A DNA stretch of 64,000 nt, from IMG/VR virus record IMGVR_UViG_3300037067_002413, positions 32,001 through 96,000 of that record; one strand, 5' to 3'. The DNA is from a virus. Its lineage: Duplodnaviria > Caudoviricetes. Positions 4,555-58,792 of this stretch are shown here, one piece after another. Position 1 is the stretch's first letter; the number at the start of each line of letters is the position of its first letter. A program made the translations under genes and the position numbers. The notes under the pieces were generated by a model, which worked only from the letters and a program-made list of their open reading frames with translations, searched no databases and was not told the DNA's origin.

Positions 4555-5028
4555 ATGAAGATTGGTGGAATTGAAACCTCGACCCTTCCGGTTGAGGAAG
4601 TGTTGGTTTTGCCGCGCGGCGACGAGAATCTTATTTTTCGCGCCACTGGCATGAAGGACATGGAGACCTTTAAGAGGCTTTGTCCCGAGCCGGAACCGCC
4701 CAAGAAACTGATGAAGGGCGGCGTGACGGTTGCGGATGTTGAGGACAAGGGATACAAGGAAGCCTTAACAAACTTCCACAAGTATCGTATGGCTTACATC
4801 GTCGTCAATTCGCTTATTCCAAGTCAGATTGAATGGGATACGGTGAACGTCAACGACCCCGCATCGTGGACGAATTGGGACGTTGATCTCAAGAAGGCCG
4901 GCCTTTCCGAGTTCGAGTGCAGTCGCGTTCTGGGCTTGGTGTTGGAAGCGAACTGCTTGGATGAAACCAAGTTGCGGAAGGCCCGCGAGGTTTTTCTACG
5001 TGGGACGCCGGAAGCGCAAGTCGCTTAA
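4555..5028 (+). CDS. Tail assembly chaperone (gpG-like)
   Basis: ATG 4555 after GGGAGA; lies between tail tube and tape measure; G GTT TTT slippery-like site at 4989-4995. Confidence 0.65.
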   Translation: MKIGGIETSTLPVEEVLVLPRGDENLIFRATGMKDMETFKRLCPEPEPPKKLMKGGVTVADVEDKGYKEALTNFHKYRMAYIVVNSLIPSQIEWDTVNVNDPASWTNWDVDLKKAGLSEFECSRVLGLVLEANCLDETKLRKAREVFLRGTPEAQVA

Positions 5029-5231
5029 TTTGGCCGGAATATCACACCGGAATGTACGCCGTTTGGAAAGCGTGCCTTCGGGTTGGCATACGTCCGCCGG
5101 GAATCCCTGAGTCATGGGATGACTGCGGAGTTGTCATGCAAGCGATGATTCTGGCTTTCGATCAGACCTGTTCGCACGACGAGGATGAACGTGCGGTGCA
5201 AATGCCAGGGGCAGGGATGCCCTTGGGGTAA
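4995..5231 (+). CDS. -1 frame extension of tail chaperone (gpGT-like C-terminal part); absent from ORF track
   Basis: -1 frame open from 4965 to TAA 5229-5231: STWDAGSASRLIWPEYHTGMYAVWKACLRVGIRPPGIPESWDDCGVVMQAMILAFDQ...; fills the gap before the next gene. Confidence 0.6.
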   Translation, partial: STWDAGSASRLIWPEYHTGMYAVWKACLRVGIRPPGIPESWDDCGVVMQAMILAFDQTCSHDEDERAVQMPGAGMPLG

Positions 5232-52550: not shown

Positions 52551-53600
52551 ATGCAGGTTTACGACAAAGATGACATTCAAGTCTATTGCGACGACTTGCT
52601 CGACGTATTGCCAACTCTTGAAAAGGTTGACTGCGTAGTCACTGATCCACCCTATGGCTTGTCGTTTATGGGCAAGGCGTGGGATTATTCTGTGCCTGGA
52701 CCTGATTATTGGAAAGTAATCAAGGAAGTGTGCAAACCAGGAGCCATGATGTTGGCATTCGGTGGTACGCGAACCCAACATCGCCTGACCTGCGCTATCG
52801 AGGATGCTGGCTGGGAAATACGCGATTGCTTAATGTGGCTCTACGGAAGTGGATTCCCAAAGTCAATGGACATCTCAAAGGCCATCGACAAAGCGGCCGG
52901 AGTGGAGCGCGAAGTTGTTGGGCAAAAAGACGTTGGGCCTGATATTCGCGGCGACAACTTTCACCGTGACGACGGAACGCGGATGATTGCTGATATTACC
53001 GTGCCTGCCACCGATGCTGCAAAACAGTGGAACGGGTGGGGCACAGCGTTGAAACCTGCATACGAGCCGATCATCTTGGCAATGAATGCGCTTGATGGCA
53101 CTTATGTCAACAACGCAATCCAGAATGGGGTAGCGGGAATCAACATTGATGCTTGTAGATTCGGATATTCTACAGAGAATCATTCCAGAAGTGCTGAATC
53201 GGCGGTTAGCAAGGGGAGGTATGGGAGCAGTGCAGAACAGAAAACCCATCAAACTGCCGGACAGGCACTCGGCCGGTTTCCGTCTAACCTATTGCTAGAC
53301 GAGGAAGTTGCTATTCAACTTGGAGATCAAGCACGATTTTTCTACTGTGCGAAAGCCTCAAAGAAGGATCGCGGCGAAGGCAACGATCATGCTACGGTTA
53401 AGCCGCAAGCGTTGATGACTTATTTGTTGCGACTTTTATCAACGCCGACAGGCGGCGTCATTCTCGACCCGTTCGCTGGAAGTGGTACAACCGCTCTGGC
53501 AGCCAAGAAACTTAATCTGCCATGTATCTGTGTTGAGAAAGACCCACACAACTGCGACATCATCGTATCGAGGTTGGAGAATGAACCACAAACTGATTAA
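52551..53600 (+). CDS. N4/N6 DNA methyltransferase (beta class)
   Basis: TDPPY, HATVKP, LDPFAGSGTT. Confidence 0.92.
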   Translation: MQVYDKDDIQVYCDDLLDVLPTLEKVDCVVTDPPYGLSFMGKAWDYSVPGPDYWKVIKEVCKPGAMMLAFGGTRTQHRLTCAIEDAGWEIRDCLMWLYGSGFPKSMDISKAIDKAAGVEREVVGQKDVGPDIRGDNFHRDDGTRMIADITVPATDAAKQWNGWGTALKPAYEPIILAMNALDGTYVNNAIQNGVAGINIDACRFGYSTENHSRSAESAVSKGRYGSSAEQKTHQTAGQALGRFPSNLLLDEEVAIQLGDQARFFYCAKASKKDRGEGNDHATVKPQALMTYLLRLLSTPTGGVILDPFAGSGTTALAAKKLNLPCICVEKDPHNCDIIVSRLENEPQTD

Positions 53601-54330
53601 CGCAGATTGCCTTGACTACCTTTCATCCAGTAATGAAACGTGGACAACGATTTTTGCTGACCCGCCTGACAATATCGGCCTTGGATATAAAAGTTACAAG
53701 GATCGCCAAAGTGAGGCTGATTACGTTGCCCTACTTCGTAAATGGCTAACTGTTTTCGTTCTCAAAGCAAAGACGGTTTGGTTCAGTTACAACTCCAAAT
53801 GGACGTTCGAGGTTGGTGCGATCGTAAAGGACGTGGTTGGTTTGCGGGCTGGCGAACTTGAAGCCAAACCCTGCGTGCAAGTGTTTACGTTCGGTCAGCA
53901 TAACCACCATGATTTAGGCAATAATCATCGACCGTTGTTGCGTTTGCGGTGGAAGGACGCGCCATTACTTCCTGATGCAGTGAGGATTCCCAGTTGGCGA
54001 CAAGAGAATGGCGACAAGCGGGCTGACCCGCGCGGGCGAGTGCCAGGCGATGTATTTGACTTCACAAGAGTTACTGGCAACAGCAAACAACGTCGTCCTT
54101 GGCACCCAACTCAATTGAACGAAGGGCTGGTTGAACGGTGCATTAAGATGACCACCCCGTCTAGTGATTCGGTTCTTGACCCATTCGGCGGCACTGGAAC
54201 AACACTGCGAGTCTGTAAGACACTGGACAACCCATGCACATTGATTGAACTTGATGCCCTCTATTGTGCAAAAATCGCAGAGGAAAACGGACTTATAAAG
54301 GGCGAATCATGCTGGTCGTGCGATTTGTAA
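53581..54330 (+). CDS. N4/N6 DNA methyltransferase (beta class), DPPD variant
   Basis: ADPPDNIG, HPTQ, LDPFGGTGTT. Confidence 0.85.
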   Translation: MNHKLINADCLDYLSSSNETWTTIFADPPDNIGLGYKSYKDRQSEADYVALLRKWLTVFVLKAKTVWFSYNSKWTFEVGAIVKDVVGLRAGELEAKPCVQVFTFGQHNHHDLGNNHRPLLRLRWKDAPLLPDAVRIPSWRQENGDKRADPRGRVPGDVFDFTRVTGNSKQRRPWHPTQLNEGLVERCIKMTTPSSDSVLDPFGGTGTTLRVCKTLDNPCTLIELDALYCAKIAEENGLIKGESCWSCDL

Positions 54331-54420: not shown

Positions 54421-54663
54421 ATGCGAGTAGTGGATTGTGTTGACCGCGAGGTCAAAGTAGGTTGTAGCATTTTGTATGCTGTTCGTCGTGGATCGAGTAT
54501 GTGGCTGAAGCGCATGACCGTTCTACAAATTGTTGAGTCAGGGCCGAATGGTCGCCCATACCTTTCTGGCACCACGCCGGAAGGACGACGGGTAAACGTC
54601 CGTAATCTTGACACAGTGGTCGTGATCGTGCCATTGGGCGTCCAATACGAAATTACAACCTGA
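54421..54663 (+). CDS. Hypothetical protein (SH3-like possible)
   Basis: AGGAGA RBS. Confidence 0.65.
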   Translation: MRVVDCVDREVKVGCSILYAVRRGSSMWLKRMTVLQIVESGPNGRPYLSGTTPEGRRVNVRNLDTVVVIVPLGVQYEITT

Positions 54664-54675
54664 GTTTAATGTCTT

Positions 54676-54712
54676 CGCCGGCCGGGTGATCTTCGTATCA
54701 ACCCGGCCGGCG
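54676..54712 (+). other. GC-rich hairpin (processing/stability element)
   Basis: CGCCGGCCGGG...CCCGGCCGGCG; no T tract. Confidence 0.5.
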
Positions 54713-54725
54713 GGCAAAGAGACAC

Positions 54726-54905
54726 ATGAAAGTCAAATACGAGAAAATCAGCGAAGATGAGAAAGTTCAGACTCATTACGAAGAATGCCGCCAAAACGGT
54801 TGCAGTCATCGAATGGCTGAAATGCTTGCCTTCAAGAAACCCCCAGTCGTTCGCAATACCTATAGTCCGCTTCATCCTCGACGCAATCGAGGTCGAGGCT
54901 ATTAA
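54726..54905 (+). CDS. 59-aa protein ending NTYSPLHPRRNRGRGY; absent from ORF track
   Basis: MKVKYEKISEDEKVQTHYEECRQNGCSHRMAEMLAFKKPPVVRNTYSPLHPRRNRGRGY; C-terminus matches 56149-56343. Confidence 0.75.
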   Translation: MKVKYEKISEDEKVQTHYEECRQNGCSHRMAEMLAFKKPPVVRNTYSPLHPRRNRGRGY

Positions 54906-54919
54906 CCCAAGAGGAAGTC

Positions 54920-55837
54920 ATGGATCATCGTGGAAAAATTGTCACCCTATCCCGTTTCGTCGGCGATAAGCCGGCAGATTACATCTGCACGTCGGATGAC
55001 GGTAACATCGTGGAAGTCGTTCCGGTCGCACCCGGCAGTGAATACATCAGTTTCATGCCATTTCGATTGAACGATTGTTGGCACGTCTACAGGTGTTACT
55101 CCGACGAGCAGAAGATCAAGGAAGTCAAAACTCGTTGCGAGATTCTCGTTCAAGAAACGGAACACGAAAACTTCCTGTTGAACGCTATCTTTGGGCTGAC
55201 GGCCGATGACCTCGAAGCCGTTCGGTTGAATCTGAAACGACTTTCCTCGCTCGATGGGGATCAACCCGTCAAGCGCAACGAACCGACGCCCAGCATAGAC
55301 TACCGCGCCGCCAAGACGAACTTTTTTGCCCAAATGTACGGTGGTACGACTTGTCGGCCAAACTACGTTGGCAAGTTGGTTTTCGTCGAAATACCGTTGG
55401 CTTTTGATGACGACGAAAGCACCGAATACATCGTTGTTGAACAATCGGCCGACTCGCTCTACGTGGTAGACACCACCTGTTGTGCCGATGGAGTCCGTAC
55501 CTATCGGATTCCGTTCAGCGACGGCAACGGTGCGAACATCACGATTCTCGACTCCTATGAGGACGACGATTTCATTCGTGAATTCATCGACCGTTTGGAC
55601 GACATGGATACGGACGATTGGGACGTTGATGCCTGCGATGCGGCCGAGACCACCAGTCGCCAATTGGCCCGCATGTTGGAGAAAAAGGCAGAGCAAAAGT
55701 CGTCGTTCGATGATTTGCTCAAGACGCATACGACCGGACTGTTCTTTGGTCCCATCAGCAGCACTTTTGGCGACCCAAAACAGGCCGAAGGCCGGTGCAA
55801 CAGGACTGGATGCAGTGGCATTGGTTGCAAGGTGTAA
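54920..55837 (+). CDS. Acidic hypothetical protein
   Basis: GAGG RBS; 305 aa. Confidence 0.65.
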   Translation: MDHRGKIVTLSRFVGDKPADYICTSDDGNIVEVVPVAPGSEYISFMPFRLNDCWHVYRCYSDEQKIKEVKTRCEILVQETEHENFLLNAIFGLTADDLEAVRLNLKRLSSLDGDQPVKRNEPTPSIDYRAAKTNFFAQMYGGTTCRPNYVGKLVFVEIPLAFDDDESTEYIVVEQSADSLYVVDTTCCADGVRTYRIPFSDGNGANITILDSYEDDDFIREFIDRLDDMDTDDWDVDACDAAETTSRQLARMLEKKAEQKSSFDDLLKTHTTGLFFGPISSTFGDPKQAEGRCNRTGCSGIGCKV

Positions 55838-55848
55838 TGGAGAACAAC

Positions 55849-56145
55849 ATGATTACTCTCTTTATCCTCCGATTGTTGGCTGTTGTTTTCCTATGCTGGG
55901 TCTATTGGAGACAGTGTACCAGGAACCAGAAGTTGGAAAAGATCAAGGAACTCTGGAAAGTTTTGGAGTTGGCAAGAGAAGTTCAGATTGAATGTATTCA
56001 GGACTTCTACACGGTCGTCAACGATGAAGGTTGCATGACTCGAAAAAGACGCCGGGAGAAGGACGTTGAACAGTCCGACAATGCCGAAGACCTTGCTGCT
56101 GGCATCAAAACGACTCTCGTTGAATTGGGCGAGTACAAGGAGTAA
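55849..56145 (+). CDS. Membrane-anchored hypothetical protein
   Basis: GGAGA RBS; N-terminal TM. Confidence 0.55.
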   Translation: MITLFILRLLAVVFLCWVYWRQCTRNQKLEKIKELWKVLELAREVQIECIQDFYTVVNDEGCMTRKRRREKDVEQSDNAEDLAAGIKTTLVELGEYKE

Positions 56146-56148
56146 TCA

Positions 56149-56343
56149 ATGCCGCTTTACGATGTTAGGTGCAGCGCGTGCGGTTCCACCAGCGAAGTAT
56201 TCCAGAAAATGGATACCAAGCAGCCCACGCGCTGCGCCGAGTGCGGCGCGCGAAAAGTTCGCCGAATGATTCTGAAAGCACCCGCGACCTACAACACCTA
56301 CAGTCCCTTGCATCCACGGAAAAACCGTGGGAGAGGATATTGA
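56149..56343 (+). CDS. FmdB-family zinc ribbon protein
   Basis: MPLYDVRCSACG...CAECG. Confidence 0.85.
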   Translation: MPLYDVRCSACGSTSEVFQKMDTKQPTRCAECGARKVRRMILKAPATYNTYSPLHPRKNRGRGY

Positions 56344-56344
56344 G

Positions 56345-56911
56345 ATGGAGACAGCGTTCGCGTGGCTAGGACAAATAATGGAGTGGATTGGGAAATGGTT
56401 TCCCCGACTCCTTATTATTCGATCAACGCACGCCGGAGTCCGTTTCCGACACGGAGACAAAGCATCGGCGTTGGCTCCTGGTCTGCGTGTGTATTGGCCG
56501 TTGGTTACCGAAGTCGAAATTATACCAACTGCACGACAGACTCACAACCTGCCGACGCAAGCATTGCTAACGTCGGACGGAAAGAAGGTTGTCGTCAGTG
56601 GAGTGGTTGTCTATGCGATCAATGACGTTGTGGCAACGATTGCTAGAAATTGGGATGTAAGCGACACGCTCAACGACATCTCAATGGTGGCTATTACGAA
56701 GATCGTCACTACTCACACCTTGGAATACCTGCTGAATCATTTGACGGTTGAAGTGCAAGATAAGTTGACACACGAAACACGACGCCGGCTACGTCGTTAT
56801 GGCGTGTCCGTTTATTGGACAGCATTGACCGATTTCTCTGAATGTATCGTCATCAAAAACATTTCAAGTGGTGGCCAGAACGGCACCATCATTACACATA
56901 ACCTGGACTAA
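56345..56911 (+). CDS. SPFH/band 7 domain protein
   Basis: GVRFRHG...PGLRVYWP, QALLTSDGKKVVVSGVVVYAI. Confidence 0.85.
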   Translation: METAFAWLGQIMEWIGKWFPRLLIIRSTHAGVRFRHGDKASALAPGLRVYWPLVTEVEIIPTARQTHNLPTQALLTSDGKKVVVSGVVVYAINDVVATIARNWDVSDTLNDISMVAITKIVTTHTLEYLLNHLTVEVQDKLTHETRRRLRRYGVSVYWTALTDFSECIVIKNISSGGQNGTIITHNLD

Positions 56912-57138: not shown

Positions 57139-57879
57139 ATGGAATTCATTCGCAAGAAAATCCGTGGGCAGAACAAAAAGATTCGTAGGACATGGATGTC
57201 CAATGAAAAATATCGAATTGTTTGGCGATCCGAAGCCTACGGAATAGGTCTGCCGGCTGCCTATCAGGCGAACGTCCGCATCATGTTGCCCAATGGCAAA
57301 GAGATGTGGGATTTTGTGAATAACCGCCGGTTGTTCAAGACGATGAAGGCAGCCCAAGAAGCCTGCGAGAAACACCAACGTCTTTGGCAGCAAGTGGCTG
57401 AGGGGACTGGCATCAGAAAACTCGAAGAATTATTCGGCATGGTGCCACTGGGTTATCCATTGTGGGTCAAGTCGAAATTGAATCGAAATATGTATGCCCT
57501 GTTGATGGACATGACCACACGCAATCGTAAGGACATCAGAATATGCGACCTAGACCAAGACGCCCTTATAAGAATTTCGGCCTCTTTTGCCTCTGGTACG
57601 GAAGCGACGGAGGAAAACCTTACCCTTGTCTCGCCTGTAGAGGAAGAGGATTTACCTACGACCCCAGAAATAGAAAGTTCATCGACCTTGGACCTAAAAC
57701 TACCTGCGCCGAATGCAACGGCACCGGCCAAGGTACGAAAGAAGCGTGTCGCCAAGCCTACACCCTCGAAATCGAAACCTACAAAGCTCAAGTCGCGGAA
57801 CACCAAAAGCGAGTCCAAGTCTACAAAGAAGCCCTCGCCAAACTCACGAAAAACGAGAAAGACGCGATCAAAGAATTAG
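57139..57879 (+). CDS. Hypothetical protein whose disordered C-terminal tail overlaps the next gene
   Basis: Globular-looking N-terminal ~135 aa, then acidic and Lys/Ser-rich tail. Confidence 0.6.
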   Translation: MEFIRKKIRGQNKKIRRTWMSNEKYRIVWRSEAYGIGLPAAYQANVRIMLPNGKEMWDFVNNRRLFKTMKAAQEACEKHQRLWQQVAEGTGIRKLEELFGMVPLGYPLWVKSKLNRNMYALLMDMTTRNRKDIRICDLDQDALIRISASFASGTEATEENLTLVSPVEEEDLPTTPEIESSSTLDLKLPAPNATAPAKVRKKRVAKPTPSKSKPTKLKSRNTKSESKSTKKPSPNSRKTRKTRSKN

Positions 57880-57890
57880 GAATGCCATGA
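57543..57890 (+). CDS. DnaJ-type Zn-finger protein
   Basis: CLACRGRG and CAECNGTG; stop overlaps next start (ATGA). Confidence 0.7.
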   Translation: MRPRPRRPYKNFGLFCLWYGSDGGKPYPCLACRGRGFTYDPRNRKFIDLGPKTTCAECNGTGQGTKEACRQAYTLEIETYKAQVAEHQKRVQVYKEALAKLTKNEKDAIKELGMP

Positions 57891-58792
57891 AAAAGTTTTG
57901 TCCAAACTGCGAAGAGATGCTGAAAACCGATAGCAATAATCCCAACATTGGACATTGCAAGGGCTGCGGTTGGTCCGGGCATTTGAGTCAGGCCGATCGA
58001 GAGCCGGGATTGCCAACCAAGAAACCCAAGTTGCCGTATGTCAGCATTGACATCGAGACAACAGGACTCAATCCCGAAACATGCCAGACATTGGAGATCG
58101 GTGCCGTCATTGATGATTGGACCTTACCGATCGACGAATTGCCGGTCTTCCATCGTGTTCTGTCCTACGATGAAGTTTCGGGATCGCCTTTCGCAATGTC
58201 GCTCAATGCCAATTTATTGAAACTCATTGGCAATCGACCGCAGGAAGACCAATTGGACTTGCCCGTTCAGGCTGTCGCTACTTGGATGGAAAAGTGCGCT
58301 TTCCCAAACAAAGACTTTCCACAAGCAACGATACGAAGGTTACTGGGCGAAACACCAATTCATTGGTATGAGATACCAAATGTTCTTTTGATGATAGGGC
58401 GTCGATACGACCTCGCAGAAGCATTGACGCTCGGCGGCAATCCGCCTGGAGTATCCTGTTTCTGCCGCGATTTTGAGTTAGCGGAATTATTTGCTACGTG
58501 GATCGCGGCCAACGGTCTCGATCCAAAGAGTGTCCAGGCTGCGGGAAAGAATTTCTCCAGTTTTGACATGCAATTTCTTAATCGACTGCCCTGGTTCAGT
58601 GAACACATCAAGTTCCGTCATCGAGTAATTGATCCTGCCATCCTTTTCTGGAATCCAGCGGAGGATGATCGGTTACCTGACAGCAAGACGTGTTACGAAC
58701 GAGCCGGGTATGGCGACACGGTGGCTCATACCGCCGTGGAAGATGCCAAAGCAGTCGTCTGGCTTGTACGCCAGGGCGTTAAACGCCTATAG
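57887..58792 (+). CDS. Zn-ribbon + DEDDh exonuclease (oligoribonuclease-like)
   Basis: CPNC..CKGC; IDIETTGL, GKNFSSFD, HTAVEDA. Confidence 0.85.
   Translation: MKKFCPNCEEMLKTDSNNPNIGHCKGCGWSGHLSQADREPGLPTKKPKLPYVSIDIETTGLNPETCQTLEIGAVIDDWTLPIDELPVFHRVLSYDEVSGSPFAMSLNANLLKLIGNRPQEDQLDLPVQAVATWMEKCAFPNKDFPQATIRRLLGETPIHWYEIPNVLLMIGRRYDLAEALTLGGNPPGVSCFCRDFELAELFATWIAANGLDPKSVQAAGKNFSSFDMQFLNRLPWFSEHIKFRHRVIDPAILFWNPAEDDRLPDSKTCYERAGYGDTVAHTAVEDAKAVVWLVRQGVKRL

Follow-up and report, generated by a model that had tools for sequence, protein, structure and literature searches.

Two very small genes of an uncultivated tailed virus encode proteins whose N-terminal parts (heads) are unrelated and whose C-terminal parts form one common tail, preserved by purifying selection as a peptide and not as DNA. 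They lie in a 64,000-nt window, bases 32001–96000 of the 145,969-bp virus record IMGVR_UViG_3300037067_002413, which is rated 100% complete; coordinates below are those of this window, and all features given lie on its plus strand. The two open reading frames (ORFs), both open on that strand, are ORF-A (54726–54905, 59 aa) and ORF-B (56149–56343, 64 aa). ORF-A ends in NTYSPLHPRRNRGRGY and ORF-B in NTYSPLHPRKNRGRGY, such that 15 of 16 residues are identical and the sole change is between R and K. Only 4 of the 15 codons for the identical residues are the same in both genes and 11 differ synonymously, as had been reported in a first-pass annotation of this DNA and as was confirmed here from the ORFs and their codons. 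The tail is probably a short linear interaction motif carried by a microprotein of a conserved phage gene cassette, a homologous module that would have been kept while the head in front of it was replaced, and its partner is for now a prediction.

The first-pass annotation had bounded the shared segment at 16 residues, and this limit does not hold. Similarity between the two proteins begins farther upstream, at a K-[AP]-P linker, and extends over about 23 and up to 27 residues; when the A and B families are aligned with their tails by hhalign, 27 C-terminal columns align (E 3e-19). Taken as 23 codons plus the stop, the tail occupies 54834–54905 in ORF-A and 56272–56343 in ORF-B, and in the former it consists of a K-K-P-P linker, a [YF]-S-P-[LM]-H-P-R core and an R-x-N-R-G-R-G-Y basic end. 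When distant members are included the constant core is [YF]-S-P-[MLC]-H-P-R-x-x-R-G, which in the window ends R-G-R-G-Y, and in those distant relatives the basic part changes in sequence yet remains basic. In several relatives the protein continues past the motif, by about 17 residues in P0034 and by more than 20 in L208 and L210, and a free C-terminus is therefore not essential. A subgroup of B proteins (L011, L016, L025, L046, L047, L054, L087 and P0011) has an extended tail that ends G-S-G-I-G-R-K-G-x and whose core often includes a cysteine (Y-S-P-C-H-P-R); P0011 is labelled in its NCBI record as part of a Candidatus Cryosericum metagenome-assembled genome (MAG).

Within this genome, comparison of the A and B tails over 15 codons gives a proportion of synonymous differences (pS) of 0.90, which is saturated, and a proportion of non-synonymous differences (pN) of 0.105. 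Within each family the last 16 codons give a pN/pS (Nei–Gojobori) of 0.11 in A and 0.21 in B at a pS of 0.65–0.9, and the heads give 0.24 in A and 0.50 in B, so that in both families the tail is conserved more strongly than the head to which it is attached (0.11–0.21 versus 0.24–0.50). Among 39 distinct tail segments, eight columns of the tail show no variation, and in a sample of 38 coding sequences the invariant positions use two to six codons each, with serine drawn from both the AGY and the TCN set. Saturated synonymous sites combined with fixed amino acids mean that the peptide, not the DNA, is conserved. Purifying selection thus acts on the tail peptide, and the first reading's statement to that effect is borne out at synonymous sites that are near saturation. 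ORF-A, which had been unannotated, is a real and conserved gene: its homologues share 70–79% identity and all carry the tail, they form a family alignment, and the head is itself under purifying selection. Homologues of ORF-B share 68–77% identity and likewise carry the tail in every case.

The heads, by contrast with the tails, are unrelated. That of ORF-B (56149–56271) is an FmdB-type CxxC...CxxC zinc ribbon in which both knuckles are present (CSAC and CAEC). It matches PF09723 (Zn_ribbon_8) over residues 1–41 at 49.3 bits against a cut-off of 34.4 (E 4.7e-13), and TIGR02605 over residues 1–43 at 51.5 bits against a cut-off of 31.3 (E 7.5e-14), the latter match covering profile positions 1–43 of 52 and leaving positions 44–52 unmatched. 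Both matches stop at residues 41–43 of ORF-B, and the known models of the family therefore do not reach the tail. AlphaFold2 (AF2) assigned high confidence to the homologous ribbon of a related locus, L068. The ORF-A head (54726–54833, about 36 aa) is an orphan that matches nothing in Pfam, PHROGs, NCBIfam or PADLOC, and the ESM Atlas held no usable match for ORF-A; at a guess this head is helical.

When the tails are removed, hhalign finds the two families unrelated (probability 0.5%), and the FmdB/Zn_ribbon_8 models match none of 17 A-family members. A hidden Markov model of each head, searched against six-frame translations of the other gene, returned only E values above 0.5. The unrelatedness of the N-terminal parts claimed at first reading is upheld by these comparisons, and no homology over the full length of the two proteins emerged. 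Two routes by which the A head might have come from the B head were considered and rejected: a frame-shifted duplication, for lack of any cross-frame match, and degeneration of a zinc ribbon, because cysteines are not conserved across the A family.

Both genes are part of a conserved cassette, which is carried by large phages that are uncultivated. When the neighbours of the tail genes in the window were compared by tblastn with all tail-bearing loci, the recurrent order was a DNA-methyltransferase-like gene (MT3), a gene for an 80-aa basic protein (p80), A or B, a gene termed p246 and a DnaQ-like exonuclease gene, with p305, a second tail gene B and an SPFH gene as optional insertions, all of them before p246. 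This five-gene cassette is found in related loci with enough flanking sequence, about 45 of them seeded by the tail and 26 by p80, with some overlap. In the reciprocal search seeded by p80, 19 of the 26 viral loci have a tail gene directly after p80, and two more (L192 and L209) have one a short distance downstream, within about 0.6 kb; in L192 the H of the core is changed to N.

The slot directly after p80 is filled by B in most phages and by A in others, and genomes with both tail genes keep the order p80-A-p305-B (the window, G004, L063, L090 and L104). Searches of whole records showed that G001 (96% complete) and G002 carry A as their sole tail gene, that G003 (100% complete) carries only B, and that G004 (100% complete) carries both. 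In the 223-kb contig L010 a frame-shifted remnant of ORF-A persists between p80 and the p305 homologue (positions 5007–5162 of that contig), with the linker and the start of the tail in one frame and R-G-R-G-Y in another, and B is intact; in L090 the reverse is seen, with a decayed B tail and an intact A. Together with the single-carrier genomes, these two cases establish that A and B behave as interchangeable carriers of one tail. In a tree of p80, 11 of 13 A-bearing phages group with L010 in one clade (support 95/76), and the placements of two divergent ones are not resolved by the tree.

The tail is restricted to these two carriers in every collection searched. A degenerate back-translated YSPLHPR pattern has two matches in the window, in ORF-A and ORF-B, and none in 100 shuffles; over the whole 145,969-bp virus the same two matches are the only ones. 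A degenerate DNA pattern for S-P-x-H-P-R-x-x-R-G-R-G was scanned over IMG/VR, the JGI metagenomes and a set of prokaryotic genomes with one for each species. All matches that lie at the end of an ORF fall into two head types, A with 16 distinct sequences and B with 28; the remaining matches (32 rows) are out-of-frame chance occurrences in GC-rich DNA and were set aside. A 30-column profile of the tail found 28 matches among 1.84 billion representative proteins, of which 27 are proteins of 50–88 aa with A-type or B-type sequence and the last, P0016, is a repeat-protein artefact that was set aside. Among the 27 is P0018 (81 aa), an in-frame fusion of roughly the first 42 residues of p80 with the second zinc knuckle and the tail of B; this chimera is a deletion variant or else an artefact of assembly. 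The pattern search suggested by the first-pass annotation, extended in this way to wider collections, therefore yielded two sites in the virus and elsewhere only A- and B-type proteins. With only two head types in every collection the tail is the hallmark of a microprotein of about 60 aa and not a widely portable tag, and the idea of a portable motif advanced at first reading survives in part: a shared interaction or targeting motif is the best reading, and broad portability is not upheld, the head types being only two and the copies homologous, neither convergent nor acquired independently. The tail profile matched no PDB sequence at E <= 10, tblastn with B or p80 as the query gave no match in GenBank phages, the cassette is present in no cultured phage, and no functional study came to light in the literature on FmdB, zinc ribbon and SPFH proteins.

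There is reason to think that the zinc ribbon came first. The slot is usually filled by the FmdB-type protein B, which would be the ancestral carrier and from which ORF-A may have been derived by exchange of the ribbon for the unrelated head of about 36 aa, with the linker and tail retained. Given that A can sit in the slot of B and can be the sole tail gene of a genome, the function common to both would reside in the tail rather than in the head. An invariant core of such mixed make-up (S, P, H, P and R together with an aromatic) speaks for binding in a shaped pocket, and the S-P-x-H-P-R segment would fit one particular pocket on a shared macromolecular partner; the basic R-G end points to a contact with nucleic acid or an acidic surface, which R-G-R-G may provide. 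The likeliest partners would be the co-translated p80 and p246, in a small nucleoprotein complex on phage DNA, with a conserved host machine as the second candidate.

No part of phage genomes is understood less well than the microproteins, and here comparative data alone separate a functional part, the 23-residue tail, from an exchangeable part, the head. If the proposed history is correct, the two genes offer a natural example of a short linear motif that has outlasted the full replacement of its carrier domain. The tail could also serve as bait, and a pull-down with the peptide could uncover the function of the whole cassette.

As p80 is a constant upstream neighbour and a predicted partner, its structure bears on this reading. 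The gene (54421–54663) encodes a basic protein of 80 aa with a conserved Y-P-V-R-R-G-S hairpin, and its AF2 model (pLDDT, the predicted local distance difference test, 88.9) has five strands. Foldseek and VIA-align place the model among SH3-like small beta-barrels, including BAH, Tudor, chromo and KOW domains, the PhnA C-terminal domain and the myosin SH3 domain, with best matches (E 7e-3, Z 8.9) that suffice for the fold class and not for a family. The conserved residues D5, Y19, R22, R23, S25, G55 and R56 are grouped at two hairpin tips. L068 provides a natural docking experiment, in that the p80 stop codon (TGA) and the start of B are in frame and two codons apart, and a read-through of this junction yields a single chain of p80 and B. 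This chain was modelled with the AF2 monomer model from an unpaired, shallow alignment of fused, p80-only and B-only rows. The domains were confident (block means mostly 81–97) and tail residues 131–150 were not (pLDDT 58 and 51), with a predicted template-modelling score (pTM) of 0.54 for the chain; in the model the tail thus appears to behave as a flexible segment.

Several observations weigh against the tail as an interaction motif inherited through head replacement. No binding partner for the tail was found, and 5 of the 26 loci found from p80 lack a tail gene within 3 kb. In the L068 chain the tail docked neither on p80 nor on the ribbon, a negative result that is weak because of the monomer model and the unpaired, shallow alignment, and the same holds for the P-x-x-P-x-[RK] pattern that every tail presents beside the SH3-like p80, which was left undocked in that chain. 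In addition, p80 is a basic protein too, and the residues conserved in it (Arg, Ser and Asn) are not those of an aromatic peptide-binding groove; to judge from the model, the conserved surface looks more like a site for nucleic acid or phosphate than a peptide groove. The history of the A head may also be less simple than a single exchange would have it, as L188 and L076 carry divergent A genes that fall outside the main A clade and have Y-H-N-type linker tails resembling those of neighbouring B genes. On account of these two, the sequence data do not separate a single origin of A from repeated head swaps. The B tails of genomes with both genes share the N-T-Y linker state with A, and shared linker states of this kind would be compatible with repeated recombination as well as with concerted evolution alongside a common partner.

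A further objection comes from an overlap that the first-pass annotation had missed: in most B genes the codons of the final R-G-R-G also serve the following gene as its Shine-Dalgarno site. In the window (56329–56347) the SPFH gene takes this site from the R-G-R-G codons of B, GGGAGAGGA. Such tight packing is usual for B, as the p80-B junction in most B phages is an ATGA or TGATG overlap or a gap of 3–5 nt (range −4 to +5 nt), and the gene that follows overlaps the B stop or starts no more than 5 nt from it in 39 of 50 cases. A ribosome-binding role could account for part of the conservation of R-G-R-G in B. It is limited to the last four residues, however, and leaves the 12 residues before them unexplained; nor does it explain the tail of A, where the downstream gene has a spacer of its own.

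A reading in which the tail is purely a nucleic-acid-binding extension, akin to an AT-hook, an RGG box or the tail of a ribosomal protein, and needs no protein partner is unlikely, though much speaks for it. The R-x-N-R-G-R-G end is flanked by prolines, AF2 gives the tail low confidence, the basic part stays basic in distant relatives even as its sequence changes, the neighbouring genes encode DNA enzymes, and p80 carries conserved Arg-Arg hairpin tips. Plain electrostatics would nonetheless not be expected to fix the S, P, H and P of the core, with the Y and M/L nearly invariant as well, which favors a shaped pocket; the tail also has no G-R-P core of the AT-hook type, no similar PDB chain and no match to the bL34 model. 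Mimicry of the ribosomal protein bL34, to whose N-terminus the tail bears a likeness (T-[FY]-x-P...R-N-R-x-x-G-[FY]), had been considered separately and was rejected, as PF00468 had no match in the virus at E <= 10 and the controls were detected.

The SPFH/Band-7 gene that follows B (56345–56911; PF01145, E 2.3e-18) raises another possibility, that the tail is a degradation signal for a host AAA+ protease such as FtsH or ClpXP, modulated by the SPFH protein in the manner of HflKC and lambda CII. ClpX recognises basic C-terminal motifs, and the C-terminus of lambda CII is the signal for FtsH. The tail is C-terminal, flexible and basic in the window, and the SPFH gene starts 1 nt past the B stop and its product is HflK-like (E 3.4e-11 against the hflK model, below the cut-off of that model). 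Even so a degron is improbable: an SPFH gene accompanies only a minority of tail genes, the free C-terminus is dispensable in P0034, L208 and L210, and at least 16 constrained residues far exceed the needs of known degrons. The same distribution bears on the suggestion, made at first reading, that the adjacent SPFH protein is the common partner of both tails. An SPFH gene follows B only in the window, L003, L010, L043, L063 and L088; with most tail genes lacking such a neighbour it was rejected as a general partner, the constant neighbours being p80 upstream and p246 downstream. The SPFH gene is a lineage-specific insertion outside the universal cassette.

It is slightly less probable again that the tail is conserved for an action in cis, either as a nascent peptide in the ribosome tunnel or as RNA that serves as a ribosome-binding or coupling element, with the microproteins of little importance in themselves. 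Both genes are short and lie upstream of, and tightly coupled to, others, and 39 of 50 B genes have the R-G-R-G Shine-Dalgarno arrangement. An RNA signal fails, however, for the 12 residues upstream of R-G-R-G, where synonymous sites are saturated, and the extended-tail variants shift the stop codon away from the motif. The downstream gene varies moreover between p305, SPFH and p246, and the heads are under purifying selection.

Two other explanations have very little probability. A packaging or localisation signal that loads the microproteins into the capsid or another compartment would be formally alike, with unrelated proteins of one genome sharing a short terminal peptide, but the genes sit in a DNA-metabolism cassette rather than a structural module, there are only one or two tagged proteins per genome, and no linkage to a shell or portal was seen, though no search was aimed at one. 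By analogy with the arginine-methylated RG tails that Tudor domains read in eukaryotes, the cassette might alternatively be a set of writer, reader and substrate in which MT3 modifies the invariant His or Arg of the RG-rich tail and p80 reads the product, an equally doubtful idea under which the failure of AF2 to dock an unmodified tail would be expected. A methyl-reader cage in p80 was considered and found unlikely, as Y19 is the sole invariant aromatic and W28 is replaced in several members.

The phenomenon is known in kind, and the motif, as far as sequence comparison can tell, appears to be new and matches none of the known ones. Short terminal peptides on unrelated proteins include encapsulin cargo-loading peptides, the T4 capsid-targeting sequence, clamp-binding motifs and the tail motifs of single-stranded DNA-binding proteins (SSB). 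The tail shares with them a short and flexible form and conservation at the peptide level on non-homologous proteins of one genome, which implies a common receptor; it differs in having two carriers only, which are related by descent, and a sequence unlike any of those motifs. The SH3 class II ligand consensus is P-x-x-P-x-R, and bacterial SH3-like barrels often bind nucleic acid. The tail core P-[LM]-H-P-R-[RK] fits this consensus and the upstream p80 is an SH3-like barrel, whereas the undocked tail and a conserved p80 surface that is Arg-rich rather than aromatic do not accord with it. AT-hook and RGG basic tails are exemplified by HMGA and by the 'RGR' element of H-NS and Lsr2, and these resemble the tail in placing an R-G-R core in a flexible basic segment on small, DNA-associated proteins of unrelated folds. 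Unlike an AT-hook, the tail has no R-G-R-P and instead continues from R-G-R-G to Y, F, H or W, with an invariant non-basic core in addition. As to the FmdB family (PF09723; NCBIfam TIGR02605, CxxC_CxxC_SSSS), the ribbon of ORF-B over residues 1–41/43 scores above the cut-offs, and ORF-B resembles the family in being a very small protein annotated as 'regulatory'. The tail beyond the models, the absence of a zinc ribbon from ORF-A and the tie of the ORF-B subfamily to a phage cassette set the present proteins apart.

Among the remaining genes of the cassette, MT3 (53584–54330 with the adopted start; ORF 53482–54330) encodes a beta-class N6/N4 DNA-methyltransferase-like protein that matches Type II methyltransferase models (E 7e-25), and the gene precedes p80 in nearly every related locus; its homologue in L010 carries PF01555. 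Motif IV of MT3 reads DPPD in place of DPPY, and DPPDN accounts for 38 of 45 motif-IV matches among methyltransferase-like ORFs of the fetched loci. The conserved replacement of the base-stacking aromatic by D suggests an unusual substrate or a non-catalytic role. Within the 62-nt gap between p80 and ORF-A is a GC-rich hairpin (54676–54712) with a 12-bp stem, a 13-nt loop and no T-run. Relatives of the A clade (L006, L089, L090 and L104) have hairpins of different stem sequence in the same gap, and the B-type phages have overlapping stop and start codons at the place of this gap.

Downstream of ORF-A, p305 (54920–55837) encodes an acidic protein and follows ORF-A, as traced by tblastn synteny, in A-type loci for which downstream flank was recovered. 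It has an extremely acidic, conserved D/E-rich block that is retained in the L010 homologue, and the gene is absent from most B-only phages; the basic tail might pair electrostatically with this protein. The next gene (55837–56145), whose start overlaps the p305 stop, encodes a 102-aa protein that is probably membrane-anchored by its hydrophobic N-terminus and is confined to the closest relatives. The p246 gene (57139–57879), usually the next after the tail protein in relatives, encodes a conserved N-terminal domain and a basic tail rich in K, S and T; its low-confidence Atlas model weakly resembles the N-terminal parts of phage integrases (template-modelling score 0.41–0.52). Pfam, NCBIfam, PHROGs and PADLOC returned nothing for ORF-A, p80, p305 or p246. 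The cassette ends with the DnaQ-like 3'-5' exonuclease (57887–58792, where 57887 is an in-frame point chosen for translation rather than a verified start; ORF 57713–58792), which matches PF00929 and phrog_192 (E 4.6e-11).

DNA of the virus is present in groundwater and landfill metagenomes, and the public runs listed include no RNA run. The cassette also occurs in Thermoguttaceae and Planctomycetaceae MAGs at three loci (L134, L183 and L124), of which L134 lies inside a 4.2-Mb Thermoguttaceae chromosome. On the strength of these three loci the cassette phages probably infect Planctomycetota, and the chromosomal copy points to temperate Thermoguttaceae phages as the source lineage. IMG/VR classes two of the relatives as proviruses.

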